64,000 nt of DNA from Verrucomicrobiia bacterium (GCA_035495615.1 DATJFP010000088.1:41763-105762), one strand, 5' to 3'. Counted from the stretch's first letter, positions 1-49,239 are shown. Notes: a model not told the origin generated them from the sequence alone. Program-made: numbers and translations.

Positions 1-330
1 AGGCGCGCGCGGCCGCGGAGCGCGCGGTTGATGTCGGTCTGCAGCGCGATCTCCCCTTCCCCGAGGGCTCGCAGGAACTGATACGCGTAGGCCATGACGA
101 TGGGATTGTTCTCGTCGACGGCCGCGGGAATCACCAGCTGCCCGCTGCGCAGGAGCGTCGAGATGTGGCGGGCATAAGCGCGGTAGATCGGGCCCGAGTC
201 GAAAAACTGATAGCCGAATTCCCTGGCCAGAGCCCGGGCGGCTGTCGATTTACCGGCCTGCGCGGGACCCGCGATATTGATGCCTTCGGGCGTTTCCAGA
301 ATCTGGACCCACTGGTCGAGCGCGGCGTCG
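1..330 (-). other. Cytidylate-kinase-like P-loop nucleoside-monophosphate kinase domain (N-terminal part) at the window edge, continuing beyond position 1
   Basis: Careful codon-by-codon translation gives LDQWVQILETPEGINIAGPAQAGKSTAARALAREFGYQFFDSGPIYRAYARHISTLL...GEGEIALQTDINRALAGR. Compare the Cmk consensus ITIDGPxGAGKGT...LAxxLGxxxLDSGAxYRA...GEIRTQEV. Walker A is GPAQAGKS. Confidence 0.6.
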
Positions 331-24300: not shown

Positions 24301-27300
24301 AGGTCTTTTTCGAGCAGGCCCGCCTCGCCCAGGATCGGAAAATACTGCGCGCCCTGGCTTTCGACGATGGCGAGCGCGGCTTCGAACGCGCGGCGGTCGC
24401 CGGCATTGCCGCGTTCGATCATGTCGAGCAGCTGAAGGGTTCTTCCGATTTCGGCCCCAAACGGATGCGGGAGCCTGCCGACACGGACGCGCTCGCGCAG
24501 CCACGCTTCCAGCGCGTTGTACTGGTTCTGCGCCTGGACGTTGTTGGGAATGAGCTGGCCGCCGCGGTCGATCGTAAAAATGGTCTGGGCATTGCCGGTC
24601 ATGAATTGCGGCACGTACAATTCGAAGAATTCGCGGCCGAAGACGTTTTCGTACATCTGAGCGAACCCGTCGTTGCTGATGTCGTACGGCGCCGGCCGTC
24701 CGTCGCGCGGCTGCTGGTCAGGAAGCTGGGCCCGGTAGAGGTCGAAGAAGTCCGCGTTGGTCTGGCGCAGGGCCGCGTCTCTTTCCGCCAGATTGCGGAT
24801 GTTTTTAGCGCGGCTGTATTCGGGGGTCAGGAACAGCATGTCCCCGAGTTTTTTGCTCATCTGGTTGTAAAGCGGCTCCTTGGTCTGGTCCACGCGCGCG
24901 GCGACAGGCTGCGGCGGCGGATACGGCGTGGCGACCCAGCCTTCGCTGAAATTGTACAGGCGCGGCTGGTCCTGACCGAGCTGTTCGAGCAGCGTCTTGA
25001 ACTGCTGTTCGTGCGGCTGCAGCGCGGTGGCTGTTGTGGGCGGCGGTGTCGCGCGCCCGCGGAACATGTGGAAGACCTGGCGCAGGCGCGTGATCTGCGA
25101 CTGGCCGGGTTCGCGGCCTATGGCTTCCAGGCCCGTGCGGTAATTCTGCTGAAGCTGCTGGTACGTCGTGGTGGTAAGCGTTTCGCGGCCCTGCGGCCCG
25201 AGGATCGTGAGATTCTGGCCCGACGTATTCCACACGATCACGGCGCGGTTTTCCGCGAGGCTGGAGATGAACGTGTCCCGATCGATGTAAGAATAAGCCG
25301 TCCTGGCAAGGTTGCCTGCGACGTTCAAAAGAAGGTTCGGCTTGAGCTGGTCTTTCAGCTGGTCCACGGCGGCCTTGAAGCCGATGGCCGCGTCGCGGGC
25401 GATCGCTTCTTCATCCTGCGGCTGGAAAAGCGTGAGGCCCAGGATGATTTCGGGCGAAGGCCGGATGTAAGGCACGTCGTTTCTCTGGAAGAGTTCGTAC
25501 TGGTTCGAGGCAATGATCTGCAGGGCCTTGTTGCGCGTCGGCGTGTCGTACAGCGAGTCGCGGGCGCCGCCGCGCACCCGCAGGGACGCGAGGCTGGCCA
25601 GCTTATAAGTATTAAGGAAGTCCAGGTCGTGGTTCGCGTACACCATCCGGGTCATGGCCACCCTGTAAGCTTCTTCGCGCAGGAAGTCGACGAGTGATTG
25701 TTCCGACTCGATGCGCGCGGCTTCCTGGGGCGCGCGGTAGTACACCGTCGAGGAACCCAGCTGCGCGGAATTGATGAACGTGGAATAACGCGTGACGCGC
25801 GGGGCGCCGTGCACGGCCAGGCTCCGGACCTGATAAGCCCGGTAGAACGTGTCCGCTCCCGACAGATGCCACCACGGCAGGAGCGCGGCGACCGGCGTTT
25901 CGGTGACTTCGGACATGATCACGTCGCGGATCCTCTGGGCCCTTTGCCCGGCGAGGTCTCTGACGGCTTCGCTCAGGATAAAGCCCATGTAGCTGGAGCG
26001 CGAAACCTTGGAAGCGAGGTTCAGGACTTCCCACTGCTGGTCGAGCTGGCCGCGCTCGTCCTTGTCGCTTTCCAGGTCACTCAGGAAGATCCGGCGGAAA
26101 GACTGGAAATCCGTTTCGTTCAGGCGGCGGAGAACCGTCCGCAGATTGCGGCCATCGCGCCCTTTGGCGGACGCGACCATCGACTGCAGGAGCAGGATGC
26201 GTCCCACGCGCTGGTTGCGCGTGATGTCCGTGGCATTGTCGGCGGAAAGGTTCATGCGGGCGAACAGGCCTTCGAATGTTTTCTTGAGCCAGTCGTATTC
26301 GTCGAAGCTGCGCGGATCGTTCCGGTGCAGCGCGGCCACTTTGTCCTGGTTGTCCGCTTCATGCCGCAGCAGGCGTGTACGCAATTGCCGGCTCTCGAGA
26401 CGGATGCGGTTGGCCGGAGCTCCGGTCACGCCGCTCGGAATCACGCCTAAAGCGCGGAGCAGGTTCTGTTCCGGGTTGCGGCCGTCTTCGTTGCGGAAGA
26501 CCGGGAAATTACGGATGGGGTCGATCGCGGTCGGATAGACCGACTTGTCATCGTCCAGGTAAAACTCCTTCAGGAACTGGCGGACGAGGTTGAGTTCGAT
26601 AAGATCCGCGGTCTGGGTGAAAGTATCGTCGGCCTCCACGGTGAAGCTCCGGCGGTTGTTCCCCTGCGTGATCCAGTGATTGACGCGTCCCGCCTCCGGC
26701 AGCGTGGGCATGTGGCTGACCTGGCGCACGGCCGTGGCTGTCACCGGCGTTTCCGGCGAGCGGTTGGCAAGGAATTGCTCGCGTGCCGTTTCCGGCTCAC
26801 GCCTCGGTTCCGGGCGCAAAAAGCCCAGGCCCGGCGGCGGCGGAAGAAGATCAAAACGCGGCATCAAAAGTTCCGGATCGATCTCCGGCAGCATGATGTC
26901 CGGCAGCGGAGGCGGCTCGATCGGGCGCGGACGAAGGAGTTCGTCGAGCGACGGATCGAATTCCAGCGGCGGCGCATTCGGGTCGATCGGGCCCGGGCGC
27001 AGCATGATGTCCGGATCAAAATCAAGGAGATCGGGTTCCACGTCTCCCGGCTGTCCCGGCGTGGGCGTTGCGGCCTGCTGGGCCGCGCGCTTGGCGCGCT
27101 CCTTATTCCAGATGTAGCCGCCCGCGATCACGGCCGCGACGCCCACGACGGCGCCCGCGATGATGATGTTGCGGCGGTTGACTCCCCGCTGGCGCTTGGC
27201 CGCGGCTTCGTCCGCCGCCTGCCTTTCCTTGGTCGATCGGGCCATGTACTCGAGCCCGTGCCGGATGGCTTCGATCTTGTCCGCGGCTTTGGGATGGATC

Positions 27301-30300
27301 GGAATTCCCTCGTCGCGGGCCGTTTCCTCGAACTCCTTGATGCCGGCCTCGATCGCGGTCTTCGCGTCCTCGATGGCCTGCAGGTGCTCGGGATAATCTT
27401 CCTCGTCGAGTTCCATGTCTTCATCTTCGATCAAGGCCTTGTGCTCGGCCAGAAGCTTGTTGTACGGCTTCACCGCTTTTTCCATCAGGATCTGTGTAAC
27501 CTCGCGCACCCGTCCTTTTTTAACTTCCGCTTCCTTTTGCTTGGCCACGCCGATGTTGCGGTGGATCTGCTCACGCGTCGTCCTGATCTCGTCGATGCGC
27601 GCGGTCAGAGGATGGTCCGGCTGCTCGAGGCGCGGCAGCTTCGCGAAGATCGTCTGCGACTCCTCGGCAAGCTCGAAAAGGGCGATCATGTTGTTGACCG
27701 CATCGGCCGCTTCGTTCACCGCGGCCCGCTCATGATCTTCGATGGGCTCCGCGGTTCCTTCCTTGTCGCCGAGCGCCCGCGCCAGGTTGTAATAAGTCTC
27801 GTAATGTTCGTAGAGGGTCGCGCGCTGGTCGGCCGCTTCCGCCGTATCCGCGAAAAGCTGCGGCATAAAACCCTGCTCGCGCAGCGCCTGCAGGTACATG
27901 GCTTCGAGGCCGGGGACCTGGGCTTCCATGGCGCGCAGATCCCGCACTTTGATGAACCACATGGCATAGAGTTCCGAAAAGAGGAAGTTCCCGCCCAGGC
28001 GGTGCGACGAAGTCTCGGCGCGCAATTCAGGGCGGGCAATGCCGCTGACCGCGCCGGGGTCGATGCTTTTGAGCTTTCCGTCGTCGTCCAGGATGAGATT
28101 GCGCCAGACGTCATCGATATCCACGATGCGTTTGTCGTTTCTCAGTTTGACGGTCGCGGCAAGAGCGCGGTGGCGGCGCACGTCCGCCTGGAAGACGGCC
28201 TGGAAAACCGCGGTCTTCTGAGCGGGTTCGATATCCCCGCTCGCGGCGACAGCCTGGAGGATGCGGGCCATGTCCGGGCCCTTGTAATCCTGTTCCACGG
28301 TAAGCTTGCCCGGTTCCTCGGAAACCTGCCGCGTCGGAACGAAGAATTCGCCCAGCACGGCCTGGTTGGCGAGACTGAGGCGCGCCTTCGTGTCGTCGAG
28401 GCTGACGGCCTCGTATTCTTTGGTCACTTTCGTCGGATGGGCTTCGTCGTCGGCGCTCAGCTTGGCGTGGAACCCGGACTTGATGCTGACCGGCAAGGTC
28501 GCTGCCACCTGACGGAGGATGGCCACGACTTCCGCGGGAAGCGGCGCGTTGTTGCCGCGCTCTTCCTTGATGGCATTGTTCAGCGCGCCTTCGATCTTAT
28601 TGAGGACGTTTTCCGCGTGCTCGAGTTTCGGCCGGTCGCCTTTCACGAGATTGGCGTAGGCAATGACGAGTTCGCGCAGGCGCCGGGCCGAGAGGTCGCG
28701 TCCCGTGCCTTCCCAGTTTGCGCGGTTTCCATCAAACCGTTCCCGCTGAGGCACGGACAAACGCGCGAGCATGCGTGCCTGCTGGCGGAGGATGTCGTCG
28801 ATGTCGAGGAAGGCCTGCAGGAATTCGTCCAGATAGGTGCGCAGCGCGGCTTCGTCTTTGGCCGCAATGACGGCCTGAACGTTGGCCAATTTGTTCCGTT
28901 CGCTCCAGACCGCGCCCGCGGCTTCCAGGCGCGACTGCAGGACATCCGGAAAGTTCTTCTTTTCGACTTCGATCTTTTTCTTTCCCGCGAGTTCCTTGAG
29001 CTCGGCCGCCATGTCGCCCAGGATTTTTTTATTTTCCGTCTTGTCCAGGTCCGCGAGGATGCCGTCGACGTCGGCCGGCGTCGCGGCCGAGGTGATGCGG
29101 TCGGTGAATTGGCGTACCAGCGCGGTGCGGGTGTCGTCCTCCTGCCGTTTCTGGTCTTCGAGAGCGCGCTGGCGGGCCTGGGCCTGCTGCACGAGGCGCT
29201 CCTCGACTTCCGCCGGAAGCTTGGCCGCCCGGATTTCTTTGAGCACGGCGGTGATGTTGTCGAGCGTCGCGCCTTCGATTTTCTTTTCCAGGTTTTTGGT
29301 CTTACGGTGGATGTTGATTTCTTCTTCCAGTTCCTGCTGGGCGCCTGTCGAAAGCGCGCTCTTGCGGACTTCGTCCAGGATGCCGTCCAGCACCGCGAGA
29401 TTGGCCACGGTCACGGCCGCGATGCGGCCGCGGAAGGACGCGATCAGCGCGTCCTCGGCCTGCAGTGTTTCGTCAGCGGCCGCGCTCAGCCCGATGCCGG
29501 TTTCTTCGGCCACTACGCCCGGAGGAGGCGTGCTCGGACGGCTCGGCGTCGGCGGAGTGACGCCTGCCGCGCGCGCGAGGTATTCATCGACGACGCTTTC
29601 CAGCGTGGCCTGCTTTCTCCAAACCCGCACAAGACCGTCCTTAATGAATTCTTTCCAGAGATCATGGCCCAGCTTGCGGCGCATGAAGTCCATGAGGACG
29701 GGCCCGTAATGATATTCCGCGGATTCCGGCGCACCCTCTTCGATTTTTCTCTTCAATTTCGTGGCGTGGAGGCTGCGCTTCTGCTCTGACAGCGCGGGGA
29801 AGGTCACGTCCAGCACGACATTGCCGGTCGCCGTTTCCCGCTGAAGGGTTTTGAGTGCCGCATAGACGAAATCGTTGGCCAGCGCTTCCGTGGCATAAAG
29901 CTGGTCCGGAGTGCGCGGGCCGGTCAGCGTGCGGTGCATTTCGTTGAAGATCGCATGGCCGACTTCCTCGATGTGGCGGACAAAGATGTCGGTCAAGCTC
30001 AGGTTCGCGATGTTGAGCGTGATGATGGTCTTCAGCGTCCCCTCTTCGCGGACCATGCGGGCACGGGCCTTCTTGTCTCCGTCATTGCTGGAACGGATGA
30101 CGATCCGGGTGATGGGAACCCGGGTCTTGGGCCCGTAATATTCGCTGCTGAAGCGCGTCAGAAAATCGTTGAGGGTGTAGAGCTTGCCCTTGTAGGGGTA
30201 GACTTTCGCGTACTTCACGATGAAGGCAATGAAATGCGCGCGGTATTTCGCGTTCCACGACGCGTCTTCGGGATTGTGCTTCTGGATCATCTCGACGATC

Positions 30301-33300
30301 TTCGCGCGCACTTCGTCCTGCTCGGCTTCGTCTTCGATGTTTTCCTGCAAGTACCGGTCGATATCGTCCTTGACCTTGTCGGGCGTCATCTTCAACACCT
30401 GGAAAAGATGGTCGGTGAGCGTCCTCACGTTCACTTTACCCCAATTGAGGCGGACGCGCGCCACATTGGCATCCGCGTCATGAATGGCCGTATCGAGATT
30501 GCCTTCGCGCAGCAGGGTCTCGGCCACGGGCTCGCTGAGAATAAGGCCCTTCTTGACCTGTCCCGATTTTCCGTTCGCCGTCAGCCGCAGCAGCTCCACC
30601 TGCATGGGCATCAAAGCGCCGGGCTTTTCCTCCGGGGCCGCCGGCAGCGTGTCTTCGGCTTCGCCCGGTTCCGGCAGGAGTTCTTCTTCGTTTTCCGTGA
30701 CCACGGCAGGCACGGCCACCGGCATTTCGGGGGTCACCGCCGCAACGGGCGCCACTTCGCCCGCTTCGCCGACGATGTCGGCCTGGGCCCGGGCCATGCG
30801 TTCCAGGCTTTCCTGCGTTTCCGTCGGGAGCCCGCTCGCGGCAACGGCGGCAAGAACGCCCGCGGCCGTGTCCGGAGTCATGTTCGTGATCTGCTGTTTG
30901 AGGTCCGCGATCGTGCTCGACATGGCCAGGGACATGCCGCCCTCGGCCTCGGACTTGGTGATGAATTCCCTTCTGGTTTCGTAAGGCCCTTCGAGTTCGC
31001 CCAGGTGCGACACGTAATCGGCGATCTGCCGGTTCACGGCCTCGCGGTCCGCCGCCTCGTACAAGCGCCCGAACTTTCTCTCGATCGCTTTCCGGCGCGC
31101 GTCGATTTGTTCGAGATGCTGCGTCAGGTCGAAATCATCGAGCGAAGCCATGGTCTGGATCTGGTCCAGCAGCGCCTGGCGGTCGAGCGCCTCGTCCAGC
31201 TCCGCGCGGAAGCCGCGGACCGTGCGCAGCACCAGTTTCTTGAAGCTCGCGTCTTTGGCGCGGCGGGCGGCAAGCGCGGCCGCGATCGGATCCTCTTCCG
31301 GCGGCGTCATGCGCAGTTCGGAGCGGCGCTGCTGGCTCTCACGCATTTCCGCCTTGAGGCCGGTAAGCTCTTCCTGCTTGGCCACATAAAGCGCGTCCAG
31401 ATGTTTGAAGCGGTTGTTGTCGGTGGCAAAGGCATTCAACCGTCCCTGGATCTGCTGGTAATGCTCGACGGTAAAGGCCTCGCCGTAATTTTCGCGCATG
31501 GAAGCGGCCGCGGTCCGGATGGACTCGAGATGCTCGGTGAAATCGAAATCGTCGATGTGCTCCATGGACGCGATCCGCGCTTCGAGGACTTCCGTATTCA
31601 AGAGTTCGTTGTCGATGCGTTCCAGGAAATAACCGACGGCGGCAGGGACCAGCGCCGCAATCTGCCGGTCGAGATCCTTGTCGAAGTCCGGCACCTGCAC
31701 CGACATGAGCGCGTCCGGAATCGACGTGTCCGTGCCTTCTTCATTAATATAGCGTTTGGCCGTGACGAGCGCTTCCAGGCGCAGCGGCACCAGGTGGCGC
31801 TGGGCGTCCGCGCCGATCTGCGGGCCGAATTCGTCGATGACAAGATTTTGAGCGGCGACAAATTGTTTGAGGCGGGCCACGGTCACGTCTTCTCCCGCGG
31901 CAAGGGGCTGTCCATAGAACCGGGCCATGATCGCCTTGGCCGGCGTGGGCTTTTTGCCGTGCGTGGCCTGGAACTGCGTCCGCAGCTGCACCAGCCCGTC
32001 CGACAATCTGCCGCGCGCCACGTCCAGGAGGCCGTTGACGCGGTTGGCTTCGATGAGCCGGTTCATGCCCGGCCCTTCGGCGAGAACTTTCCCCGCGGGA
32101 AGAACGGTTCCCACAAGCGTTTTTTGCGACGCCGCTTCTGCGATGGCGCGTTTCACGCGGCCGGCCGCCTCGCGCAAGACGCCGAGTTCCGAGAGGATTT
32201 CCTGCTGAAGGGCGCGGTAAGCTTCGTCGAGAGGTTTATAATTTTCGCGCACCGTAACGAGGCCGCTTTCGTCCTGGGCCGCGTAGGGGTGGTCCGCTGC
32301 GAGTCCTTCGAAGAACTTTTCGAGGACCCGGTCGACTTCCGTGGGATCGTCGGTTTTCGAGGGAAGGTCGTTGAGATTCCGGATCCGGCTCTGAATGCGG
32401 GTCAGCGCGCTATGCAGGTGGCCTTTTTTATCGGGCTGCGATTTGATCCGGGCCAGATTGCCGGCAAGCAGTTCTTCCATCGCCGCTTCCTGGTCCGGAT
32501 GCGTGCGCAGGAAATCCACGATTCCCTTGTTCCCGATAATGTCGGTGAGCCGCGACAGTTCCGCCTCGACGGTGCCGTGCATGTCGCCCTGGACCTGCGC
32601 CAGCATCCCGCTCACTTCAGGCCTGAGGGTTTTCGCGGTTCCGTCCAGCGAGGCCTGCAGCGCGATCTCGTCGAGCCTGGCCGGGGTCATGTCCTGGAGC
32701 GCCTCGTTGTCCATGTGCAGCGCGGTCAATTCCGCCACCACTTTTTTCGAGATCAGAACATGATAAAGGTCGCGGATGTCGGCCGGCATGTCGTCAAAGC
32801 CCTTGCCGCTGGTCGAGGCCCGCATGGCCGCGGCCTTCAGGGCGTCGCCGGTCGTCTCTTCCAGCTTTTTCCCGGTCGCGTCGCCCTGGATGTCTTTCAG
32901 GTACTGGCGGACATTGTCCGCGATGGCATTGCGTTTTTGGGGTGCGAGGACCGTGACCACCTGGGTTTTCAAGTCCGCGGGCACGTTCTTGAGCAGGAGG
33001 AGCATGCGCTCGACCGTGACCACGGCATTTTTCTTCTCGCTGATGTTTTTCATCCAGCTCTGGACTGCGGCGGTCGTGGCCTTGAAAATCGCCGCGGCTT
33101 CATCGGCTTTGAGGGTGAGCTCCTGGCGCAGCGCGTCCGCGCTCTTGATCTTGCCTTCGGCCGTCGGATAATCGCGTCCCGGCTGGGCCTTGGCTTGATC
33201 GAGAAGCGAGAGCACTTCCTGGATTTTGGCCAGCCGGATATCCTCTTCCGTCGGGGCCGCGGCCGATGGAGGCGCCACTTTTCCGGGCGTCTGCAGTCCC

Positions 33301-36300
33301 ACGAAAGAAACGTCATCGTCGTCGGCAAAAGGATTCGCGCGTTCCAGCCTCTTTTCCAACCCGTCTCCGGGGATCGAGGAGGCGTCCCGCGCGGCCTTGG
33401 CCAGCGCGTGCACGGTCTGATCCAAAGGCAGGGTGCGCGTCATCTCAACCAGTTCTTCCATGCCCGGGATCGGCATCACGCGGCCCACGACCGAGATCGT
33501 GGCCAGCGGCTTGCCGGGTTTGTTGGCGAGTGTCGTCGTCCGTATCGTGCTCAAACCGGCAGGCGTGCTCTTGTCGCCGCCGTCGGAATAAACCAGCGCC
33601 CGCGTTCCGGGAGGCACGTCCACCTGGGTGCGGTTGTTGCTGCCCAGCAGAAGAGCATCTCCGGAAAGGAATTCGTCGTGCTTGTGGCGGACGCCCAGAT
33701 AAAGCTCCAGGTTCTCCTGCGTTGTGAAGCGCGGAAGCGTCTCGCCGAAATCTTTGGCCTCCACCTTGCCGTCCGGGAGAATGAAAATGCCGGTGCTGTC
33801 GCCGTAATCGAGACCCAAGCCCGCGTATTTTTTCTTATCCGGATCGGCAATCTGCCGTGTTTCCGGGTATTCCCAGACAAGACGGATCGTGAGGGTGGTC
33901 ATGGCCCGCGAATGAATCTGCCGGGCCCGTTTGGCCTCGGACAAAGCTTCATTGGCCGCATCGACCGCGTCCTCGAGGACTTTCAAGGCGGCCTCGGGCG
34001 TTTGCGCCGCGAGCAGCTTTTCCCGGGTGGCTTCCTTCTCGATGGCGGCGATCACGATAAGCGCGGCCTGCCGCCCGTCCGGCTGCCCTCCGGCACCGTC
34101 CGCCACCGCGATGAGGCCCCGGTCCGGCAGGTTGAGAATGGCGTCTTCGTTGTTCTGGTCCGCCAGCGGTTTATTGATGCGGTACACTGCGGGAGCCGTG
34201 TAAGCCCAGGTCGTAAAACCCGTAGCCTTGCCTTCGATAGCTCTCTTTTTCGCGTCAAAATCATCTCTTACCCAAGGCCTGATCCGCTCCGGAAGCGCTT
34301 CGATCTGGCCTTCGACCGCCGCCAACTCCCCCGCGCTTGAATTCAGCGTCAGCGCGTCGACTGCCGCCCGCACCGGCATGTAACGGCGCCGGTCTTCCTG
34401 GATGCGCTGGGTAATCTGCAGCTTCTTGGCATCGGCCGCGCGGCCGATCTCGTCTTCGAAGCGCTGATAAACGCGCGGCGTGGTTTCTTCTTTGGCGCTC
34501 TCGACGTTTTCGTCGACGATGGCGATGCTGAGGATGTTGATGTCCGCCTTCTGCAAGTCCTGGATAAATTGCCGGAGCCGCTGCTCATCCCTCTTATCCT
34601 TGGCCGCGATCTTTTCTTTCTTGGCCCGTATGGCTTCCTGGACGTCGGCACGCTGCCGCAGCCGCGCATCCGTCAAAATCTTGGCCGCTTCCCCTTCGAC
34701 ATCGGCTTCCGCGACGGTTCTGGGGTCCAGGGCTGTGATCTTGCTAATGGCTTCGAACGCCGCCTCCTCATCCGCGGCAACCCGCGTCCGGATGGCCTCG
34801 TTCTTTTCGGCGAGCCGGGCCTGTTGCAGCCGGGCCGCGGCGTCCTGCGCGCCGTTCAGCCGGTTTTCCAGCGGTGTGACGTCCGAAAACGCATTGAGTG
34901 GGGTCAGCGCATCGACTTTGGGCGTAATGTCCGCTACGATCAGGCCCACGACTTCCCCGATTTCCCGCTTCAAAGCCGCCTGCAGTTCCGTGTCTTCCTT
35001 AATCTGGTCCGCGCGGCTGAGCAGCGCTTCGGCATCCGAAACCTGCGCCGCGGCAACATTCTTGCGGAGGTCTCCCAGGAGCCTGCGTACGTCCGCCGCG
35101 ATGTCGTTGTTCGAGCGCGAACGATCCCCGATCGACTGCCGAGCGGCTTCGAATTCTTCTTTGAGCGATTCTTTGAGATCTTCCCGGTCCGCGACACGCG
35201 CTTCCTGAGCCTGCACGTCCGATTCGTTTTTGACCCGGCGGAGCTGGATCTTGATATCCGCCATCAGGTCGCGGTCGAGGCTCTCGCGCTGCGTGATGGC
35301 CTCTTCCTTGGCTTCCACCTCGCGCAAAAGACGCGCCGCCCGTTCGCCCCGGGCGCCGGTCACGCGCGCCCGCAAGCCCTGCGCGGCGGTAAGGTCGCTG
35401 CGGTCAGTGAGCTGCGCGATCTGCGGTTCGATCGCATCCATGATCTTTTCCGCGGCCGCGTCGATCTCGCCTTTCACCTTGTCTCTCAGTACGGCGCCCG
35501 CGATCTGATCCGCCTGGTCGGCAAGGTCCTGCATGGTGCGGACATAAACGCCGTCGATCGCGGCCGTTTCCGTAATTCTCAGGCGCACCGCGGCGGCGGC
35601 CGTGTCATCGGCCTGGATGCGGCGCTGGATCGCGCCGCTGATGTCATTGGCTTTTTGCGCGAGGCGGTTGGCGCGCTCGGTCTTCGCATTGACGAAACGG
35701 CGGCGCTGCGCCTCGACTTCCTCTTCGGTGCTGAGTTCGCCGAGCCGGTCGAGAGACTCGTCGATGTGAGCGGCGACAAGCACCATTTTGCGTTCGATGA
35801 GCGCCTCGAGAGGGCCGCGCATTTTCGCGTTCTTCAAGCCGGCCAGTTTTTCCGTGACGGCTTCGACGTCCTGCAGCGCGGCCGTTTCCGTGTCAAGGCC
35901 CTGAAGCGCCCCGCGCACGTCCTGGTCGATCGCGCCGTCCTGCCGGATCCGTTCCTGGATCGCGGTTCTTTTCTGCGTGGCAAGATCAAACAGCTCGGGA
36001 ACCGATTCCGCTTCCTGCATCCGCGCTTCCTGCGCGGCAACGTCCTTTTCTTCGTTCAATTCCGTGAGCGCTTCCAGTTTTCCCCGGATGTCGGCCGCTA
36101 CAAGCCCGCGCGACTGCTCGATCGCGGCAACAGTCCTGTCGCGAATGGCCACGGTCACGATTCCCTGCGCCCGGGCTTTCGCGGTCTCAAACGGCTTCAC
36201 CGTTGCCGTGGCCGGCGTTTTGGGAAGGCCGCCGAGGATTTCCCGCGCGGTTTCTTCGTCGCGGCGTCCGCGGTCGCGGATGCGCGTCTTGATGTCGGCG

Positions 36301-39300
36301 GCGAAACCTCCGATGCGCTGACGCTGCCGTTCTTCGGGCAGCCGCGCCACGGCCGCATCGACGTCCGCTTCCGTGCTCTGTTCGTTGGCGGCGAGCGCGT
36401 TCATGGCCGCCTGCGCGTCCCGGATCAGTCTCGAATCTTCTTCTTCACGTTCCCGCAGGAAATCGCGGCGCGCCAAAGCCGCTTGCCGCAATCCTTCAAC
36501 TTCGGGCGATTTGGCGTTCTTCAGCCGGTCTTCCTGGGCGCGGATGTCGTTGACGTCTTCCGCGGCGGCGATTCGTTCCCGGATGTTCTGCACCACGGCA
36601 ACGCGCTTGGCCTCGATCTGCGGCCTCGCTCCTGTTTTCAAATCCTCATAAGGTACGGCTTCTGCCCGCTCGGCATAAGATTCGATGACTCCGAGCGGCA
36701 CGCCGTCTACGCCAAAGCCCGTCACGTCGCCGACCAGCCGTTCCATTGTTCGCTGGTAGTAATCGTAAATCTGGGCTTCCATCTGAGTCCGCTTGGCCTC
36801 GAGCCGCGGGAACACGAAAAGAAGGAGCGCGTGAAGGCTGGGGGTCGATTCGGTTTGAGCCAGGAGGTTCTTTTTCGCGCGCGCGTAGGCGGTTTGTTCC
36901 GCCGCGGCTCCGGCCTCCTGGTATTCTTTCAGCGCGCGGACGAATTCGTAGGAACTCTTCTGGTCCAGGGGCGGCATTTCCGTGGAAGTCAGCATGGCCG
37001 CGGCTTCGGGCACGATCTGGTCCGGCTTGTCGAGCTGTGCCGCCATGGCCGAGATGAGCCGCGATTCGTACTCGGCGAGGGCGGCTTCAGTCGTGCTGAG
37101 GCGGGCGCCGATGCGCGATTGAAGTTCCGAGACAAGAGGCGCGGGACTGTCGGCCGTTCCGGCAAGCGCCGCGGCTTCCTGGCCCAGGCCCTGGAGGCTC
37201 TGGTAATTTTCGTGCGGATCGCCGCGGGTCTGCTCGAGACGCTGGGCAATGTCGCGGAACTTGATCGTGTTATCGACCTGCGGCGTACGAACTTCGCCGG
37301 GCAGCACTTCGAAAAAGGCAATGACCGCCAGGATGGCGTCGAAATTCGCGGCCACATCCCCCATGTGGGGCTGCAGCGCGCCTTGCAGGAGGGTTTGTCC
37401 GCGCGCGGCAATGATGCCCGGAATCTGGGGCCTGTCCGCTTCGGAGGCCGCGCCGCGCTGCGCGTACGTGTCTACCAGGATCTGCGGGCTCATGGCCTGC
37501 GCCGTCGTGGTCTGGATCAGTTGAAACGCCCGGGCCAGCTTCAGGACGTTCAGGGCGTCGTTATTTTCAGGAGAAAATTTCGTGGTGTCCCACGTGATGG
37601 CGGCCAGACGCTCGAAGGAGTCCGCGCGGTTGATTTGCTTGGCCAGCCGGCCGAAGCGGGATTTTTCCGTGCCGCGCCATTTGATCACTCCCCAAATGGC
37701 TCCGGCTCCGGCCGCGAGACCCGCTGCGATTAAAGCGGGCCCGGTAAGATTGGGCGCGTTGACCGTGACGCCTCCTGCTTGTTCCGCCAAATACTGATAA
37801 AGTTCGTAAACGCCGTAAACCGCCACGCCGGCGCCGGTGAGAACTCCCAGGCCGAGCAGAATGCGGTTTCTCCAGACGCGGGCCGTCTCTTCCCGTCTTT
37901 CCAGTTCGGTCTTTCTCGCGCGCGCGCCGTCCTGCTCCGCCGCGGGCAGATCATTGATCACAGCTTCGGTAATATCGGCCGACCGCCGGGCTGCTGCGAC
38001 GGCTGCGCGCGCATCCTCGATCTTCTTGAGAGCGTCGCGCTTTTCCCGGGCCTGGTCCCGCTCGCCGTCGTTTTCGAGATCCGCGAGCACCGCGTCGGTA
38101 ATCTGCGCCGACTGCGTGGCCGTGGCGACCGTACTTCTCGCGGCTGCAAGGCGCGCCGCCTGGATCGCCGTCCTCTTGCCTTCCGCGACTCCGGCGAGCC
38201 TCGCCGCTTCCGTCGTCTGAGCTCCTTCCAGACGCGCCGTCTGCGCGGCCACCTCTTCGATCGTGCTGGCGTCGGTCAATGCCGTCAACTTGCCTTCGAT
38301 GTCCGCCACGATTTGCGTGACTTTGCCGCGGATTTCATCTTCCACCGCCCCGCGAGCGGCCCCGTCTTTGATGCCGGCCGCCAGAGGCAGAAGAGCTTCG
38401 GCGTCGCTTATTTTCGCGGCAGCGGCATCGATCTGTCCGAGCTGTGTCCGGATATCGCGCGCTTTATCCTCGTCACCCCGCAGCCGGTCGCGAATCTGTT
38501 CCACGGCGGCATCCGCCTGGTCTTTCACCTGGATGCGGAGACGTTCCTCCAGACCGTTCACAATGGCGGCGAGCTGATCTTCCGTGGCCGTTTCCAAATC
38601 CAGGGCTCCGATCGCGCGCTTGGCCTCAGCGACCGCGCGGCCGTCCGCTTCGATTCTCGCCTCGATGGCTGCGCGTTTGGCTTCCGCCAATTCCCGCAGC
38701 CGCGCTGCTTCGGGAGTCTTGGCATCTTCGAGGCGTGCGGTCTGCGTCACCACCGATTCGGGAGTGTTGAGTTCGGTGAGGGCATTCAATTTGCTTTCGA
38801 TGTCGGCGACGATCTGCCCGACTTTGCCGTTGATCTGGCTTTCGACACTGCCGCGAAGCGTCGCGTTCTGGATCTGCGCGGCGCGCGTCAGCAGGGCTTC
38901 CGCGTTTTCGATCGTGGCGCTTTCAGGCTGAACCTGCCCGAGATCCGAAAGGATGGCGCCGGCTTTTTCGTTGTCGCTGCGGCCGCGCTCGCGGATCGCG
39001 GCAATCTTGGCATCCGCTTCGTCGCGCACATGATCACGCAGGCGGGCCGGCAGCCCGCTGCGAATGGCTTCAACGGCGTCTTCCGCCGCCGTGTTCACAT
39101 CAATGTCGTCGATCTGGCGCTTGGCTTCGACTATAGCCCGGGCATCGGCCCCGAGCCTGTCGCTGATCGCCTGTTTTTTCTGTCCCGCCAGATCGCGCAG
39201 GCGTCCGGCATCGGCAGCGGCGGCGCCTTCGAGCCGCGCAGCCTGGGCATCCGGGTCAGCCAGCGCATTCAGTTCCGTCATGGCGTTCAACTTGCCTTCG

Positions 39301-42300
39301 ATGTCCGCGACAATCGCGGTAACGCGGGCGTTGATTTCGCCCTCGATCGCGCTCCTCAAGGTTTCTCCCTTGATCTGTTTCGCCCGCGGCAACAAGGCTT
39401 CGGCGGCGTGCACGTTGGCATCGCCCGGAAGGAGGGCCGCAAGATCGCCGCGGATCGCTACTGCTTTTTCATCGTCGCTTCTCAAACGTTCGCGGATGGC
39501 CGAGAGCGCCGCCGCGACATCTTCCGCAATCTGGTCACGCACGCGTTCGGGCACGCGCGTCTCGATGGCTTGGACCTGGGCAGGCGTCGCGGTTTCGGGA
39601 TCGAGCTGGCCGAGGTCCTGTTTGGCCGCCGTGACGGCTTCGCGGTCCGCGGCGATGCGCCTCGTGATGGCGTCCATCTTGCCGCGCGCCAGATCGCGAA
39701 GGCCTGCGGCTTCCGAGGTAAGCGCGTCTTCGAGGCGCTGGACCTGCGTGTCGACTTCGGCCGCCGCGCTCAACTCGGTCAAGGCTTCCAGTTTTCCGCG
39801 GATGTTTTGGACGATCCCGCCCACTTTCGCGTTGATTTCATCCCGCACGGTTTCTCTCAGAGCGGGGTTCTTGATGTCCGCGGTCTCCGTCAAAAGGGCT
39901 TCGGCTTCTTTGACAGCGGCCGTTTCAACCGGCAGCAGTCCAAGCCGCTCACGAATGCTTTGCGCTTTTTGTCCGTCGGTTTCGATGCGCTGGCGGATCG
40001 CAAGCAGGGCCGCCTGCGCTTCGGTGCTCACCTGGCCGCGCAGACGTTCAGCAAGACCGTTCACGACGGCTTCGACATCGGTGGCCGCGGCTTCATTTAT
40101 ATTAAGGCTCGTGATCGCCTGCTTCGCCTGGCTTACGGCGAGCTCGTCCGCCCGGATCCTTCTCTCGATGGCGGCCGATTTTTCTTCCGCAAGCGTGCGC
40201 AGCCGGCCCGCTTCGGACGTGGCCGCGTCTTCCAGCCTCGGCGTAATCGCCGTCACGCTGGCGGGCTCGTTCTGGTCCGTCACGGCATTCAATTTCCCTT
40301 CGATGTCCGCAACGATCGCTTTGACTTTCTGATTGATCTCGCCTTCGACCGCGGAGCGCAGCGTTCCGTCTTTGATCTGCCCGGCGCGGGTCAGCAGCGC
40401 TTCCGCGTCTTTGATCGCCGCCGTATTGGCAATCGCTCCGAGGTCACCCCGGATGGCCGCCGCCTTTTCGGTATCGCCCTGCGTGCGTTCGCGAATCGTG
40501 GCGGCCGCGGCATCCGCTTCGGCCTTGACCTGATCACGCACCCGTTCGGGCACGCGATTGCGAAGGGCTTCTACGTCGTCCACCGCGGCCGTGTCCAGAT
40601 TGAGCGCCGCGATCGCCTGCTTGGCTTCGCGCACGGCGCGTTCGTCCGCGTCGATCCGGTTTTGAATGGCCCTGGATTTCTGCTCCGCCAACTCCCGCAG
40701 CCGGGCCGCTTCCGGCGTCACCGCGCCTTCAAGCCGCGACGTCTGGGCCGTCACTTCTTGGGCCGTGCTGAGTTCCGTCAAGGGCGTCAGCTTCGTTTCG
40801 ATGTCCGCGGCGATCTGGCCGGTCTTGGCATTGATCTCGCCTTCCACGGCCGGACGCAGCACCGCATCTTTGATCTGCGCCGCGCGGGGAAGCAGCGCTT
40901 CCGAATCCGTGAGCTTGGCCGTCGCGGCGGCGATACCCTGCAGGTCCGAACGAATCGCCGCGGCTTTTTCTCCGTCGCCCCGCGTGCGGTCGCGGATCGT
41001 GGCAATGGCCGCGTCCGCTTCGGTCTTCACCTGCTCGCGCACCCGCTGGGGCACCCCATTGCGGAGGGCTTCCACTTCGTCCACCGTGGCCGTGTCCAGA
41101 TTGAGCGCCGCGATCGCCTGCCTGGCGCCGCTCACTGCGAGCGTGTCGGATTCGCCGCGGCCGGAGATGGCCTGAGACTTTTGGCCTGCCAGCTCCCGCA
41201 GCCGGGCCGCTTCCGGCGTCACCGCGCCTTCGAGCCGCGCCGTCTGGGCCGTCACCTGGTCGGCCGTGCTTTCGTCCGTCAAGGCGTTCAACTTTCCTTC
41301 GATGTCCGCGACGATCCGCGTCACGACCGCGTTGATTTCGCCTTCCACGGTCGTCCGCGCGGTCTGGTCCTGAATCTTTGCGGCGCGCTCGAGCAGCGCT
41401 TCCGCGTCTTTGATGTTCGCGGCCGCCGGCACGATCCGTCCGAGATCCGCGGCAAGGGGCCCGCGAAGCGCCGTGTCTTCTTCGCCCCGCTTTAAGTCAT
41501 CCCGCCGCCGTTGAGCCCCTGCCAAAATCACGTCGTAGGCGCTTCTTTCATCCCCGGCGAACGTCACCCCCGTCACAAGCCGTTCCGCTTCATCAAGTTT
41601 CTGCTGCGCCTCGGCCGCTGTGTCCGCAGCCTGGGCTGCGGCAAGCAATCCGACCAGCGAAACAACATTGCCTCGGCGCGTTACCTGCTCTTGTTCGGCT
41701 CGCTTCAAGTCGCGCTGCTTTACGCGCAGGGCTTCGAGGGCTTCGGTATAACGGGCTTCTTCCTGGCCGGCAAATGTGACCTGGCTGCGCAGTGCCGTGA
41801 CGGTCGCGATCGTGGCTTCCGCCTGCGTCGACGAGGTCGGCTCCACGGCCAAAAGAGCCATCAGGTGCCGGACTTTTCCCGAACGTTCGGCTTCCGCATC
41901 TTCGTCCGTCTTGAGACGCTGCGCGGCTTCGCGTGCAAGCCCGAGCGCATCGGTGTACTGCCGCTGTTCATTCCCCTGAAATTGGACGCGGCCTGCAAGG
42001 TCTTCGGCTTCTCGGATCATTTCCTCGGCTTCGGATGCCGTTGCGGCGCGCTGCGCGCCTGTCAGCAGGCTCTGGATGCGGCGCACCGAGGCTTCGCGGT
42101 CCGCGACAAGTGCCCGATGCTCGGCGATGAGTCCGGCCAGCGCGCGCGTGCGAGTGCTTTCAGCGGCGCCTTCCAGCCTTTTTTCCTGGAGGTCGAGGAC
42201 GCCTGTGTCATAAGTGCTCGTGACCTGGGTCCGGATATTGGATTCGATGGCAAGCGCGGTTTGTTCGACTTCCCCTTCGAGCGTCGTGCGCAGGCCTTGA

Positions 42301-45300
42301 TTGCGGACGCGCGCCACGTCCTTCAGCACGGCTTCCGCTTCCGCCAGCGTGGCCGTCGCCGCTTTCACATTCAAATTCGCGAGCGCGTCACGTACGGTCC
42401 TGGCCAGGGTTTCTTCCTGCGCCACGGCTTCCTGGATGGCTTTCTTTTTCTGTCCCGCCAGCGCCTGGAGCCACGGCTGGGCCGCGGGATTGAAACGCCT
42501 TTCCTGCGCCTCGACCGCGCTGACGGCCGCGGTTTCGTCCATCGCGGTCAGCGTTTCCTGGATGTTGTCAATGAGGCTGCCGATCACGCGGCCGACTTCG
42601 CCCTGCCACGCCTGACGCACGCCTTTGTTCTGGATCTGATTGACCCGCTGATAAAGCATTTCCGCGTCGCTGATCTGGGCAGTCGTAAGGTCGAGGCCCT
42701 CGATCGCTTCCATCACGCCTACGGCAATCTCATCGTCTTTGCGGATCCTGTCGCGGATGGCCTGGCGCACGGTCTCGGCTTCTGCGGCAATGCGCGTCTG
42801 GAGAGGTTCCCGCAAAGTCGCGGCCACGGCGTTCACGTCTTCTTCCTTCGCGGTCTTCGGATCGATCTTGCTCAGTTTCCCCAGAACGTCCTGCACGCTC
42901 GCCGCGTCTTCAGTTTCCTGCAGGGCCATGAGATCCAGCACTTCCACGACCTGTTTGTCCCCGCGCACGGCGTCTTGGAGCCGCAGCGGAAGCGCAGTGA
43001 TCGCGGCTTCCACGTCCTGGGAGGCCGCTTGCCCGATCACCATGCTCGTGATGGCGGCGATCGTCTGCGTTTTCATCGCTTCGTCTTTCTGCTCACGGGC
43101 CGTGATCGCGCGGGTCATCTCCTCCACCTTGCTGCTCAGCCTTTTGAGGACGTCTTCCGGAAGGCGGAGGGCCATATCTTCGGGAAGACGGAACATGACG
43201 GCGTTGACCTGAGGCACGGTAGAGGTCTCGACCGGAAGAGCGCCGATCTCGGCAACCAATCCGTCGATAAAGGCGGAGTCGCTCGCCGCCTGGAAACGAT
43301 CATGGACCGCCTTGACGCCGGCCGTGAGATCCGTGCGCAGATTTCCGCGGTAGCCGCGGGTCCGTTCGCTCTGAGCGGCAAGCTCGTCTTCATTTTTGAC
43401 TCCGGCCAGACGCTCGACGACGTTCTGCGCCACCTTCTCCTGCTGCGCGGCCGCGGCCTGTTCGATCTGGTCCCGGTAAGCGCGGCCAGGCGCAAATCCC
43501 AGCAGCCGCAGCCCCTGTTGGACAAAAGCCGAGACGTCGCGCACCGACACCTCGCGCGCGTCGATTTCCCCGATTTGCCGGACAAGGTCTTCCACGGCAC
43601 TATCCATTCTCTGCCGGCTCCGCTGTTCGCGGCTTTCGGCAAGGTCACGCTGTCTTTTCTGTTCACGGGCCTGACGCGCCTGGTCGACCGGCACGGCTTC
43701 GAGTTGTTCGACCGCGGTTTCGCGGGCCTGTTCTTCCGGCTGTGGCACGGGCTTGGGCTGTTCTTCGGCCACTTCGGCCGCGGGAACTGACTGGACCACG
43801 AGCGAATACAGATGCGCAATGTCTTTGTATTCCTGGAGGACGAGCTTGATGACTTCCGTACGCGTCTGCACGGCCATCTCGAAAAGCGCCTGCTTTCTGC
43901 CTTGCGCGGTTTCATCCGCATCGGTCGTCGACTGCTGTTTCAGCGCCTCGAAAAGCGCGCGGATGAGCGCCGGGAGCTGGGCGAGTTTTTCCTGGACGGC
44001 CAGAAGCTGGCGCGCGGTCTGTTCGCTGGACAATTCTTCTTCGCTGGCAAGGCGTAAGGTTTCCAGGGTGTCGCGAAGGCTGTGGAGTCCCTGCACGAAG
44101 TTCGCGCCGTCCTGATAGCCTTCGCTCAGCTTCGAATAAATATCGCGGTAGGCCACACCGATGGCCTGGACCGCGTTGTCTTGGGCCGCCCGCAATTTCT
44201 CATCCAGGCTTCCGAGCGCTTCATCGAGCTGCTGGATGCGTTCGGTGAAACGCACGCGCAGCGCCTCGGCCCGGGTCTGGATTTCAGTGCCTTCATAATA
44301 AGATTCCCGTGACAAGGCAGCCAGCTGCTCCATGACCACGTCCCGAAGCCGCCACAGGGTGTACTGTTCGTTTTCGATGACCCCGGCCGCTTCACGCACC
44401 AGCGGGAATTGCCCCGCGGGCTGCTGCAGCTGGGCCTCAAGCTCTGATATATAGGAAGCGGTGTGCCCGAGCTCCTGGTCCGTTTCGCGTTCGATTGTGT
44501 TCAAACGGCGCGTCAGCACGCCCATGTTATATTCCGCGATTTGCCGGATCTTCTCGTCCGCGGCGGCGCGGACGCGGTCTTTGAGATTCGCGGGTAGGAG
44601 ATCGACCAGCCGGTTGACTTCCGCGGGCGTGCCGACCGGAACCGAGACTTTCGTCTCGATGGCGGCCGTGACTTTTTGCACCTGCAGGTCGTCGAGCTTG
44701 CCCAGGGAAGCGGCGCCGCGCGCAATAACCGCGGCAAGCGCCTGCCTTCTGGATTTCAAAAATTCAATTTCGCTTCGCACGCCGGGATCCACGGCGTCCG
44801 GATTTTTTCCGAAGGCATCTACCTTCGCGTCGAACTGCGCGAGCGTCCTATCCGCTTCCTCCCGGATTTTCCCGATCTGGAGCCGGATCGTGTCGAAGAT
44901 GCTAGTCGTTTCTTCGGTGAGGTTCGGGACGTTCATGAGGCTTTCGGCGACTTCGAGGCTGCGGATCAGCCTCGTCTCTTCCGTTTCGTAGAAAGCGCGG
45001 GCTGCGGTGACTTCGCCCTTCAAGGCCAAAACGCGTTTTTCCGTGAGTTGGATTTTACGCGTCAGTTCCCGGATCCCGGCCTGGGCGTCTTCGGTCACCC
45101 TCTTCAGGGAATCGTCGAGCTCGCGGAGAAGGTCTTCGGGTTCTTCCGTCGTCCTCAATTCCGCGCGCAGGCCGACAGCAAGCTGGGGCATCTGGCGGGC
45201 ATTCCCATTCAAGCTTGCGAGAAGCTGGCTGCGTCCTTCGCTTCCGAGACCCGCAAAATAGGCATCGGGCCGGCCGAGCAGTTCGCCGATCAGGGCCAGG

Positions 45301-48300
45301 ATTTTTCGGACCGCTCCCGCCGACGGAGTCTGCTTGAGTCCCGCCAGCGTCTGTCCCGCTTCCGCGATCGCTTTCTTGGCATCGACCGCCGCGGGCTGCT
45401 GCACGGGTTGGCGGGCCCGCTCGAGCGCACGCGCGATGCCGGGAAGATCGCGGATTTCAGGAGGCAGGGCTTCGAGAGTCTTGGCAATTTCGGCGACTGG
45501 TTCCGGGACCATCTCCGGATCGAGCTCGGGCGTCAGCGAAACATCGAGGGCATGCTGGATATTATTGTAGAGCAGATTCCCTTCTGTCCCCGTGGCCTTG
45601 TCTTCGTAAGAGAGCTTCTTAATAATGTAGTCGCGCAGGTCCGCCATTGCGAGAGCGATCGTGCCGGCCTGAATCTGGCGCGCGGCAAACAGAATCGCGT
45701 GATGGTCATACGTAATGCCCGTCGTATCCGAAACCTTGGGCATGTTCGCGGCGCGGTCTTCTTTCCAAAGGTCCTCATTGCTCATGGCCGCTTCCGGGAA
45801 GGCCTTGTTATGCTGGCGCAGCGATGCTTCCTCAAGCAAATCCAGGACGGCGTTCCGCTGCTGGCCGCCGAGCGCGTTCCAAGCCGCTTCGTCCGACCGG
45901 CGGATCAATTCGATCTGGTCGCGCAGCGCCTGCTGCAACTGCCCGGCCGCCTCTTCCCGCTGGATTTGGGAAGTCCACGCCTGCGGCAATTTATCGAGGA
46001 TCCAACGCTGTACCTGGACCGAATAATCCGTGACTTTCTTTTCCGTGGCCGTGCGCGGAACGGTGAGGCTCATCGGGTCTCCCGGCTGGACTTGCAGCCG
46101 GTCCAGATGCATCAGGAAATGAATGAGCGCGTTCTTTTCCTGCTTCGTCCACGACGTAAGCTCGGAGTTCCACCGCTGAAGCCCCATGAACCGGTTTCTC
46201 GAGAGATCGTAGCGGCGCTTTTCGATTTCCGGACGCGGGCGCTCCACAGCGCCTTCCTGGAACCGCAATTCGCCTTTCAACGCGGCCTGGCCGAGGTCGG
46301 TAACGACGACGCTGATCTGGCCGGGCTGCACCTTGCCGAGCGCTTCCGTGACGGCCGGATCCCTGACCAAGTGCGCATCCACGGGCCCGGAATAATAGTT
46401 GCTGTCGCCGAGCTCCAGCCGGTTCAAACGGTCGGGCTGTTTGAAAAGCCCGCGGGCTTCCGAATCCTGGCTGCGAAGCACCTTCGCAAAAAGGCGCAGC
46501 GCCTGTGTCTTGTCTTCGCCCGTCTGCCACAAAAACTGGTTCGGACCTTTCCGCTCCAGCACGCCGCCGAAACGGTTGACGATCGCGAGGAGACCCTGCT
46601 GGTATTCCGCAGGAATTTCCGCGGCGATTTTCTTACGCATTTCCTCGAGCGCCTGCTCAGGAGTATTGCTTTCGAAGATGCTTTCGACGATCGTCAGGGT
46701 CATGAGGAAAAAGGCGTGCGCGTATTCAGGATCGCGGGCGATGAAATCGGCGGCTTCCTGGCGGAGACCCAGGCTCGCCGCATTCAGAAATTCGCGCGCC
46801 TTGGGCGATTTTTCGATGACCATGTGCCAGGCCGCGAGCTGGAAGCGCGGGTCGCTCAGGCTTTGCTGCTGGGGCGGGAGGAAAGTCTCCACCAGCCGCG
46901 TTTCGAGCGGCATCGGCTTCTGGCTGAGGGCGTCCACGTAAAGCTGCGTTTCCTTGGTGTCGTCGATCTGGCCGTGGATCCGCGGCGCGATCACAAGGAA
47001 AGAATAATCGTTTTCCTTGAGATAGGCCTCGATGCCGGGCGTATGGAAACCACCGGTAATGATCGCCATGATCTGCTGCTTCCCGGATTCCATTTCCCCG
47101 ACCGCTCTCTCGATCAGGATCTTGTCGCGTTTGAGAGCTGCGGAATAATAACGCTCCACGCGGCCAAGATCCTGATCAAGGATCTCCAAAAGGGACGGCA
47201 ATCCATTGGAGAACTGATGTTGCTTTAAGAGCGGTACGAGGAAATTACGGAATGTCTCTGCCTTGAATTCGTCGCGGTATGTGTAGAAAAAGTCTGCGTC
47301 CTGCTTGGTCAGGGTGAAATTGAACATCTTCTGGTAAATCTCGAAAATGCGGAACAGCCGGTCCAGCTGCACTTCCTCTTCGTTGCGGAACAGCTTGTTC
47401 TTGATGTCCCGCTCGAGCGCCTCGATCTCGCTGAAGATCGCGACGTCGATCGAATCGTAGAGCCTCATATATTTAAGGTAGCGCAGGACCTCGTCGTACT
47501 TCTGGGCCAGCTCTTCCTGCCCGGCCCCCTGCGTCGACTGCATGTTCTGGATTTCGACCTGGAGATAGCCGTAATAGTCCGCGCGCTTCATCTTCTTCAT
47601 GCGGAACTGGACCGTGTTGGTCAGAAACTCGGAGAGTTTTTCACGCGTGAGGACGTTTTTCAGGTCGTTGATCAGGTCTTCGATGCTTTTTTCGGCTTTG
47701 TCGAAATCGATTTCTTTTTCGAGATCGATGAGCGAGAGAAGCGAGTGCATGCCCGGATAATCGTAAAGGGCGATGTTTTCTTTGCGGGCCGTTTCCACGA
47801 GATGGCGGACGTAACTCACGAGTTCGTTGCCGCCGGACTGGAAGGCCTGCCGGTAATGCAGCATGTCCCGCAGATCATCGGAGAAAACGAACCGGGAAAC
47901 ATCGTCCATCAGCTTTCCGAGGTCCGCCAGAACTTTTTCGTCTCGGTCTTTGTATTGCAGGGCGTCGAGATAAGCGCGCCTGTTTTCTTCATAGATCTGG
48001 CGGTCTTCCACGCCGTACAGGTTCAGTTCCGGCCGGTCGACGATCGCGAGGTATTCGGGCCCCGTCAAACGGGCTTCTTTCAAAAAGTAATCCGCGACAT
48101 TTTTGCGGGCTTCTTTGTTCGGAAAAAACGAAAAGAGTTCGGTGAAGAGTTCGCCCTCGGCGCCTTCCAGGTTGATCAGTTTAAGACCGTAATTTTTGGC
48201 GAAATAATCAAGGATGCCCGCGATGTTGCGCTGGGCCTCTTCATTTGCATGAGCGTCCTGGATGTGGATGACGATGCGGTCGCGGGAACCCTGGAAGTTT

Positions 48301-48530: not shown

Positions 48531-48704
48531 GAGGATTTGCCGTCCCTATGTTTTGCTGGCCAAATTGACGTGCTAACTTACCGACTACTTAAAAAATTGA
48601 TTTATATTGTTATATTTAAACTATATATCAAAGTTTTTAAACTCACAATAGTATAGACCGAAATAATTGTAAGTTAAATACTTGATAAAAGTTTTTATGA
48701 AGTA

Positions 48705-48795: not shown

Positions 48796-48796
48796 T

Positions 48797-49228: not shown

Positions 49229-49239
49229 GATTCCTCCTG

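Follow-up and report, generated by a model that had tools for sequence, protein, structure and literature searches.

An array of old, diverged 167-residue helical repeats in a giant Omnitrophota gene

What is encoded by positions 38050-42100 of a 64,000-nucleotide stretch of DNA labelled Verrucomicrobiia bacterium (GCA_035495615.1, DATJFP010000088.1:41763-105762), where an earlier note had reported two nested, recently expanded families of tandem helical repeats? Throughout, the whole of this stretch is called the window. The interval is part of one gene of more than 48 kb, and is neither an ordinary set of genes nor an unstable repeat. This anatomy, a giant minus-strand open reading frame (ORF) of Omnitrophota that carries old helical repeats of 167 amino acids (aa), is held with high confidence. 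On balance, and with moderate confidence, the array is read here as a lineage-specific rod or spacer in a membrane-anchored Omnitrophota protein that exceeds 16,000 residues.

A six-frame scan that included frames leaving the window identified a minus-strand frame, 48545..3, that is free of stop codons for 16,181 codons. From its first ATG, at 48530, the giant ORF begins MIDWQTRRAKPWLRTVALLVALIFIV... and enters a hydrophobic N-terminal segment. Residues are numbered here from codon 48545, so the initiating methionine is residue 6; the exceptions are the residues of a 695-aa N-terminal query (D92, H94 and H496), which are counted from that methionine and are converted by adding 5. The G+C contents of the three codon positions in this frame (0.68/0.43/0.79) constitute a coding signature and its translation matches 49 database proteins. 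On the opposite strand, every large ORF within 165..47228 begins in one common frame, and these plus-strand ORFs are codon-aligned antisense shadows of the giant gene. A gene of more than 48 kb was overlooked by standard ORF listing because it leaves the window and casts such long shadow ORFs. Stop-codon reassignment, considered as a cause of the row of same-frame plus-strand ORFs, is ruled out by the uninterrupted minus-strand frame.

As the ORF listing returns only plus-strand ORFs here, all in one frame, it might be proposed that these ORFs (37779-41495 and others) are the real genes, or that misassembly generated the array or the entire giant ORF. Such an artefact is hardly credible. A run of 16,181 stop-free codons is not attainable by chance at 63% G+C, the minus-strand frame has the third-position G+C of 0.79 given above, its translation has homologues, and one of its repeat units is predicted to fold at high confidence; in addition, the plus-strand ORFs are shadows and the repeat units are too diverged to have been duplicated by an assembler. 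In base composition, the giant gene (window 1-48000) has a G+C content of 0.61-0.67, with 0.73-0.85 at third codon positions, and the flanking genes (48000-64000) have 0.50-0.55 and 0.64-0.70, respectively. The AT skew of the plus strand is strongly negative over the giant gene.

The tandem array of helical protein-coding units reported by the earlier note is present, at approximately 37986-42050, but with a different period. In a lag scan of 37.9-42.4 kb, DNA self-identity is maximal at 501 nucleotides (nt), where it reaches 0.478 against a background of 0.279 +/- 0.024 (approximately 8 standard deviations), whilst the proposed lag of 465 nt (~155 aa) lies at background level (0.309). The corresponding maximum in the protein is 167 aa, and a direct-repeat search returned families of four to six copies that are spaced by 501, 498 or 1002 nt and are 60-78% identical. 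Tandem Repeats Finder reported nothing on 36-44 kb, which is expected because the copies fall below ~70% identity. A profile hidden Markov model (HMM) was built from the six full units, U1-U6, and delimits a core array of seven, in which the second half of U7 has diverged; with weaker copies on both sides of the hairpin, the 167-aa units total ~16 (Table 1). The repeats extend beyond the interval 38050-42100, with diverged copies at 42030-42908 and 34227-36677.

Two further elements of that description also stand, namely a second, shorter repeat of three units on the N-terminal side of the array and a transmembrane (TM) hairpin directly after the repeats. Along the protein, three short units are followed by seven 167-aa units and then by the two-helix hairpin, a segment of ~1,350 aa for which the proposed all-helical and probably rod-like character is supported. 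The short units measure ~69 aa rather than ~62 aa and, instead of being nested within the longer repeat, they adjoin it. A nested sub-repeat is ruled out by hhalign, which compared the 69-aa unit with each third of the 167-aa unit and detected no relation (probabilities below 1%). Likewise, an origin of the 167-aa unit by triplication of a ~55-aa 'short helix plus long helix' element is not established, with hhalign probabilities of 11-15% for thirds 1-3 and 2-3 and no match for 1-2. An HMM of the short unit finds its own three copies and no others, either elsewhere in the giant protein or in 80 related ORFs, and self-BLAST of the 16,000-residue protein revealed no further internal repeat at E < 1e-4.

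Table 1. Features of the giant gene in window coordinates
Feature	Position	Strand	Residues (aa)	Basis
Giant ORF	3..48530	-		First start ATG 48530; at least 16,176 codons; 3' end past window position 1; no cysteine
N-terminal hydrophobic segment, signal anchor or signal peptide, WLRTVALLVALIFIVHDVV	48441..48497	-		Kyte-Doolittle 19-residue mean 2.04; lysine/arginine (K/R)-rich side N-terminal
Conserved N-terminal domain heading the giant-ORF family	46821..48368	-		Motifs HIQDAHANEEAQ, EGAEGE, TGGFHTPGI
Diverged 167-aa unit copies, partly truncated, ~110 aa each	42030..42908	-	1880-2172	Unit-HMM independent E-values 1e-8, 2e-17, 1e-7; self-BLAST offset 107 aa
Three tandem short units, ~69 aa	41442..42050	-	2166-2368	Three-copy HMM 96-107 bits; alignment
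Core array, seven tandem 167-aa (501-nt) units, U1-U7	37986..41441	-		Unit HMM 236-252 bits for U1-U6, 94 bits for U7
TM hairpin, ILLGLGVLTGAGVAVYGVY + PALIAAGLAAGAGAIWGVI	37683..37862	-	3562-3621	Hydrophobicity peaks 1.83 and 1.78; outer flanks K/R-rich
Five to six diverged 167-aa unit copies beyond the hairpin	34227..36677	-	3957-4773	Unit-HMM independent E-values 1e-7 to 3e-25; self-BLAST 28-33% identity
PP2C_2 phosphatase, sub-threshold	~33900-34160	-	~4,796-4,886	Pfam
ARMT1-like, weak	~5430-5760	-	~14,262-14,372	Pfam
Cytidylate_kin, first 37 positions (P-loop)	~170-280	-	~16,089-16,125	Pfam

The age of the array is a separate question. The earlier note had described near-identical DNA in adjacent copies and had inferred recent unequal crossing-over or concerted evolution, with the region a likely point of assembly collapse or expansion. 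None of these claims is sustained by the unit alignments. Protein identity between units ranges over 36-68%; for DNA aligned by codon the range is 48-73%, and every pair except U1-U2 falls within 48-63%. At positions where two units share an amino acid, most pairs use the same codon in a fraction of 0.44-0.56 of cases, compared with the 0.45 expected from the codon usage of the gene if synonymous sites were randomised. Because synonymous sites are near saturation, the duplications are old and the protein is under purifying selection; to judge from these alignments, the units are the product of old tandem duplication in which selection has preserved the protein sequence. Collapse of an assembly within the array is implausible, as DNA identity is only 48-73% and exact repeats reach 39 nt at most.

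The rival view, that gene conversion or recent unequal crossing-over homogenised a young array, so that its copy number varies between strains and its assembly is prone to collapse or expansion, draws what support it has from a few pairs. The (near-)identical blocks of 40-60 nt reported for adjacent copies exist in U1/U2 (39 nt exact, the longest in the array, or 47 nt with one mismatch), which is the closest pair (68% aa and 73% nt identity) and contains two local tracts of ~45 nt that are 93-100% identical; these tracts could stem from a more recent duplication or from gene conversion over a short distance. Even when one mismatch is tolerated, the blocks shared by other adjacent units do not exceed 12-18 nt. 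The same-codon fraction is modestly raised only in U1-U2 (0.69), U1-U3 (0.66) and U3-U6 (0.65). Recent homogenisation is very unlikely, given the synonymous saturation of most pairs, the low DNA identity outside U1-U2, the failure of Tandem Repeats Finder to detect an array and a longest exact repeat that is too short to mislead an assembler. Old, diverged repeats are also described in Omnitrophota long genes generally by Nielsen & Lui 2026 (10.64898/2026.06.07.730766), in agreement with the array here.

What fold has been preserved? An AlphaFold2 model of U1, based on the six-unit alignment, has a predicted local distance difference test score (pLDDT) of 92.9 and a predicted template modelling score (pTM) of 0.72. 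It comprises helices at 10-20, 26-53, 60-70, 76-112, 120-128 and 132-166, a short-long pattern that occurs three times, such that each of three long amphipathic helices (28-37 residues) is preceded by a short one. Hydrophobic residues recur along the long helices with a period of 3.55-3.9 residues. Invariant columns of the six-unit alignment are mainly Leu, Ile and Ala together with paired charges, the invariant charged residues being R29, R69, E71, R82, K88, R95, D99, R133, R135, R150, R152, D156 and K159. Foldseek found no significant match to the model in the PDB; among PDB folds, alignments that span most of the unit were obtained with pairs of spectrin repeats alone, at weak scores. Searched against all PDB sequences at E <= 10, the unit profile had just five matches, all of them weak, and Embp and Ebh chains were not among these. 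A Pfam scan covered all 16,181 residues at E <= 0.01 and detected no family in aa 6-4500, the portion that holds the core array.

Relatives of the repeats are equally scarce. Word-indexed protein searching found no homologue of the whole repeat segment, and a protein homologue search found none for the hairpin plus the next 330 aa. An exhaustive HMM search with the six-unit profile against 1.84 billion representative proteins produced just two matches (E = 1e-6 and 7e-5), which are judged spurious because both are low-complexity, beta-rich repeat proteins to which the profile aligns in numerous short pieces. When JGI metagenome contigs were scanned with peptide patterns of the unit, 182 stretches matched and none was confirmed; an exact 40-mer from the left end of the window had no match in metagenome contigs. 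None of the collections searched yielded a close relative that carries the array.

The N-terminal part of the protein has many homologues. Its first 995 aa match 49 proteins, nearly all of them 'partial' hypothetical proteins of Candidatus Omnitrophota/Omnitrophica, and the best relatives of the N-terminal domain reach 63-64% identity over the first ~620-690 residues. A GTDB scan with this domain yielded at least 420 loci, and comparisons with related giant ORFs were made with the visible parts of the best 80. All named organisms among these 80 are Omnitrophota metagenome-assembled genomes (MAGs) or single-cell genomes, and at most of the loci the ORF bearing the domain continues to the end of the sequence, for ~3,900 aa where the full flank is present. 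Neither the 167-aa nor the 69-aa HMM matches the visible parts of these ORFs. Homology to the relatives ends at aa ~660 and resumes only at aa ~8,700-9,450, which corresponds to aa ~1,000-1,790 of three of them (L010, L029 and L041), where the two conserved modules are just ~400 aa apart. Between the N-terminal domain and this conserved TM-hairpin module lie ~8,000 aa (aa ~660-8,690, window ~22470-46560, minus strand) to which nothing in the first ~3,900 aa of the relatives corresponds. Because homology in the visible parts stops and resumes in this way, the ~8,000 aa look lineage-specific, and suggest a large lineage-specific insertion or expansion that includes the array. One related giant ORF (L017, JAUYMS010000050.1, 2403-14447) has a strong internal 41-aa periodicity of its own (lag identity z = 9.3), which bears no relation to the 167-aa unit. 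From such comparisons, it seems that the repeats amplified downstream of a common N-terminal domain differ from one lineage to another.

That N-terminal domain appears to be EreA/ChaN/TraB (TIKI)-like, with an alpha/beta core and a large helical insert. Over the remainder of the 16,000 residues Pfam is nearly silent, with only the three weak enzyme-like signals listed in Table 1. A hydropathy scan identified, besides the N-terminal segment, ~25 segments above a Kyte-Doolittle value of 1.7, arranged as hairpins at 3562/3603 and 8946/8986, a single segment at 7127 and dense clusters across aa 11,359-12,760. Two such clusters (aa 11,359-11,640 and 12,028-12,760; window ~10270-14470, minus strand) hold ~20 hydrophobic helices and resemble polytopic membrane domains without a Pfam match. 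Directly upstream of the giant gene (48797-51243, minus strand), two response-regulator receiver genes flank a PAS/histidine-kinase gene. Farther upstream (57135-58617, minus strand) are two PilZ-domain genes and yajQ; pilZ genes are reported to be conserved near Omnitrophota giant genes (10.1101/2023.11.21.568195). A contig with the flanking genes of the window, among them one for an identical 601-aa protein, occurs in SRR9009773 and in JGI 3300045391.

To which known systems does this protein relate? On sequence grounds, the giant gene belongs to the described giant or long membrane proteins of Omnitrophota, closest to the 'tandem-repeat scaffold' class. Omnitrophota giant proteins are described as membrane-anchored (10.64898/2026.06.07.730766; 10.1101/2023.11.21.568195), and many of them as 'tandem-repeat scaffolds' in which the nucleotide tandems have been dissolved by old divergence (10.64898/2026.06.07.730766). 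Features in common include an N-terminal domain homologous to proteins of Omnitrophota MAGs (best match 64% identical), an ORF of more than 16,000 aa with an N-terminal hydrophobic segment, many scattered TM helices and mostly Pfam-free sequence, and internal protein repeats with decayed nucleotide tandems. At 16,176 codons to the window edge, the ORF lies above the catalogue threshold of at least 10,000 aa used by Nielsen & Lui (10.64898/2026.06.07.730766) and, within the window, below the 30,000-aa 'giant' threshold of West-Roberts et al. (10.1101/2023.11.21.568195), its true length being larger. Where the scaffold class has Pfam repeats such as TSP3, NHL, WD, HEAT or TPR, the protein here has an orphan helical unit. 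Hallmarks of the Archaeovorin/Dockerin type (SecA-DEAD, C39/S8 peptidase, a glycosyl-enzyme set, dockerin/TSP3) were not found by Pfam at the above threshold in the 16,000 residues within the window. The available portions of the 2023 and 2026 papers contain no mention of an EreA/ChaN/TraB-like N-terminal head.

For the array itself, the closest functional analogues would be spectrin repeats and the helical-bundle repeats of Embp and Ebh, although the sequence does not support membership in either group. A spectrin repeat is a three-helix bundle of ~106 aa. The tandem modules of spectrin, plakin and nesprin resemble the 167-aa unit in having three long antiparallel helices, the packing here being predicted. 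Embp and Ebh are 1-MDa staphylococcal surface proteins; in Embp, 170-aa F and 125-aa FG repeats, each of two alpha-helical bundles, form a rigid elongated rod ahead of a C-terminal TM region (PMC7587433). The array resembles these proteins in its all-alpha tandem units of similar size (167 aa, compared with 170 and 125 aa), in the presence of two adjacent repeat families in one giant protein with a TM segment downstream, and in the low identity between units of conserved secondary structure. It differs in lacking any FIVAR, GA, DUF1542, Embp or Ebh match (Pfam, E <= 0.01; PDB sequences, E <= 10), in belonging to another phylum with another envelope, and in its TM element, which is not a C-terminal anchor but a hairpin within the protein, past which further repeats follow.

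These analogies allow a mechanism to be proposed. The three long helices of a unit would pack as an antiparallel bundle, in which the chain would therefore enter at one end and exit at the other; with the unit ends at opposite poles, tandem units would stack head to tail into a semi-rigid rod. At ~5 nm per unit, the core array would span ~35 nm and the full set of copies ~80 nm. Such a rod may act as a spacer or scaffold that fixes how far the non-repeat segments and the conserved EreA/ChaN/TraB-like head stand from the hairpin, a 'membrane staple', in the manner of spectrin repeats or of the F/FG repeats of Embp and Ebh. Two observations weigh against this proposal. A spacer role leaves the invariant charged residues unexplained; rather than making salt bridges, they could constitute a binding surface. 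In addition, the topology signals conflict, as the N-terminal anchor would place the array outside the cytoplasm and the K/R-rich flanks of the hairpin would, by the positive-inside rule, place it inside. Topology predictions for Omnitrophota giant proteins are described as unreliable (10.1101/2023.11.21.568195).

Cysteine content also touches on location. Not one of the 16,181 residues of the giant ORF is a cysteine, and related giant ORFs (loci L002-L080) contain 117 in 196,444 residues (0.06%), compared with 0.63% in the 16 flanking genes of the window. This avoidance leans towards export; the word 'cysteine' occurs neither in West-Roberts 2023 nor in Nielsen & Lui 2026 on Omnitrophota giant genes.

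The charged residues raise the alternative that the helical units are binding modules, forming a multivalent adhesin surface for attachment to prey or host, much as the F/FG repeats of Embp bind fibronectin. Many invariant positions are indeed charged, surface-type residues, the complete absence of cysteine fits an exported protein, and the helical repeats of Embp serve as rod and ligand-binding surface at once (PMC7587433); moreover, prey adhesion has been proposed for Omnitrophota giant proteins (10.1101/2023.11.21.568195). Nevertheless, an adhesin is a fairly unlikely reading, as searches of Pfam, of PDB sequences and of PDB folds revealed no homology to known binding modules, and the topology signals conflict. 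The unit is also absent from the visible parts of the 80 related giant ORFs, and because of this absence it is not the conserved functional core of the family.

A second alternative takes the hairpin flanks at face value. Lysine and arginine account for 5 and 6 of 15 residues in the flanks and for none in the connecting loop, which, under the positive-inside rule, puts both arrays in the cytoplasm; the array would then be a membrane skeleton or tether, spectrin-like in location as well as shape, with the hairpin pinning a pair of helical rods to the inner leaflet. A TM-only arrangement with cytoplasmic bulk is predicted for 46% of the long proteins of Omnitrophota (10.64898/2026.06.07.730766), and the enzyme-like matches elsewhere in the protein (PP2C, P-loop kinase motif) are of usually cytoplasmic kinds. 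Set against this, the N-terminal segment resembles a signal anchor with its positive side N-terminal and is followed by no further strong hydrophobic segment before aa 3562, which places the array outside, and a protein with no cysteine is more typically exported. A cytoplasmic skeleton is thus considered unlikely, and the rod or spacer remains the preferred reading.

A bolder proposal, to which only low probability is given, is that the 167-aa unit represents a genuinely new family of helical repeats, born and amplified in one Omnitrophota lineage as part of an insertion of ~8,000 aa, and that with the hairpin it builds a membrane-stapled arch of two spectrin-like rods.

Beside the array, the more notable features of the locus are the giant ORF itself, its cysteine-free composition and its EreA/ChaN/TraB-like head domain. 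The unit is predicted to fold confidently yet has no credible relative in very large databases, so that structural work would find in it an accessible portion of the 'dark' sequence of giant proteins. For the Omnitrophota, the array exemplifies how giant proteins grow, through a helical module that was duplicated in tandem long ago and has since diverged under selection for its fold, and it supports the view of such repeats as scaffolds and not as recent expansions. Should the arch of two rods prove true, an ultra-small episymbiotic bacterium would possess a lattice element, at the cell surface or beneath the membrane, of a kind not previously described.

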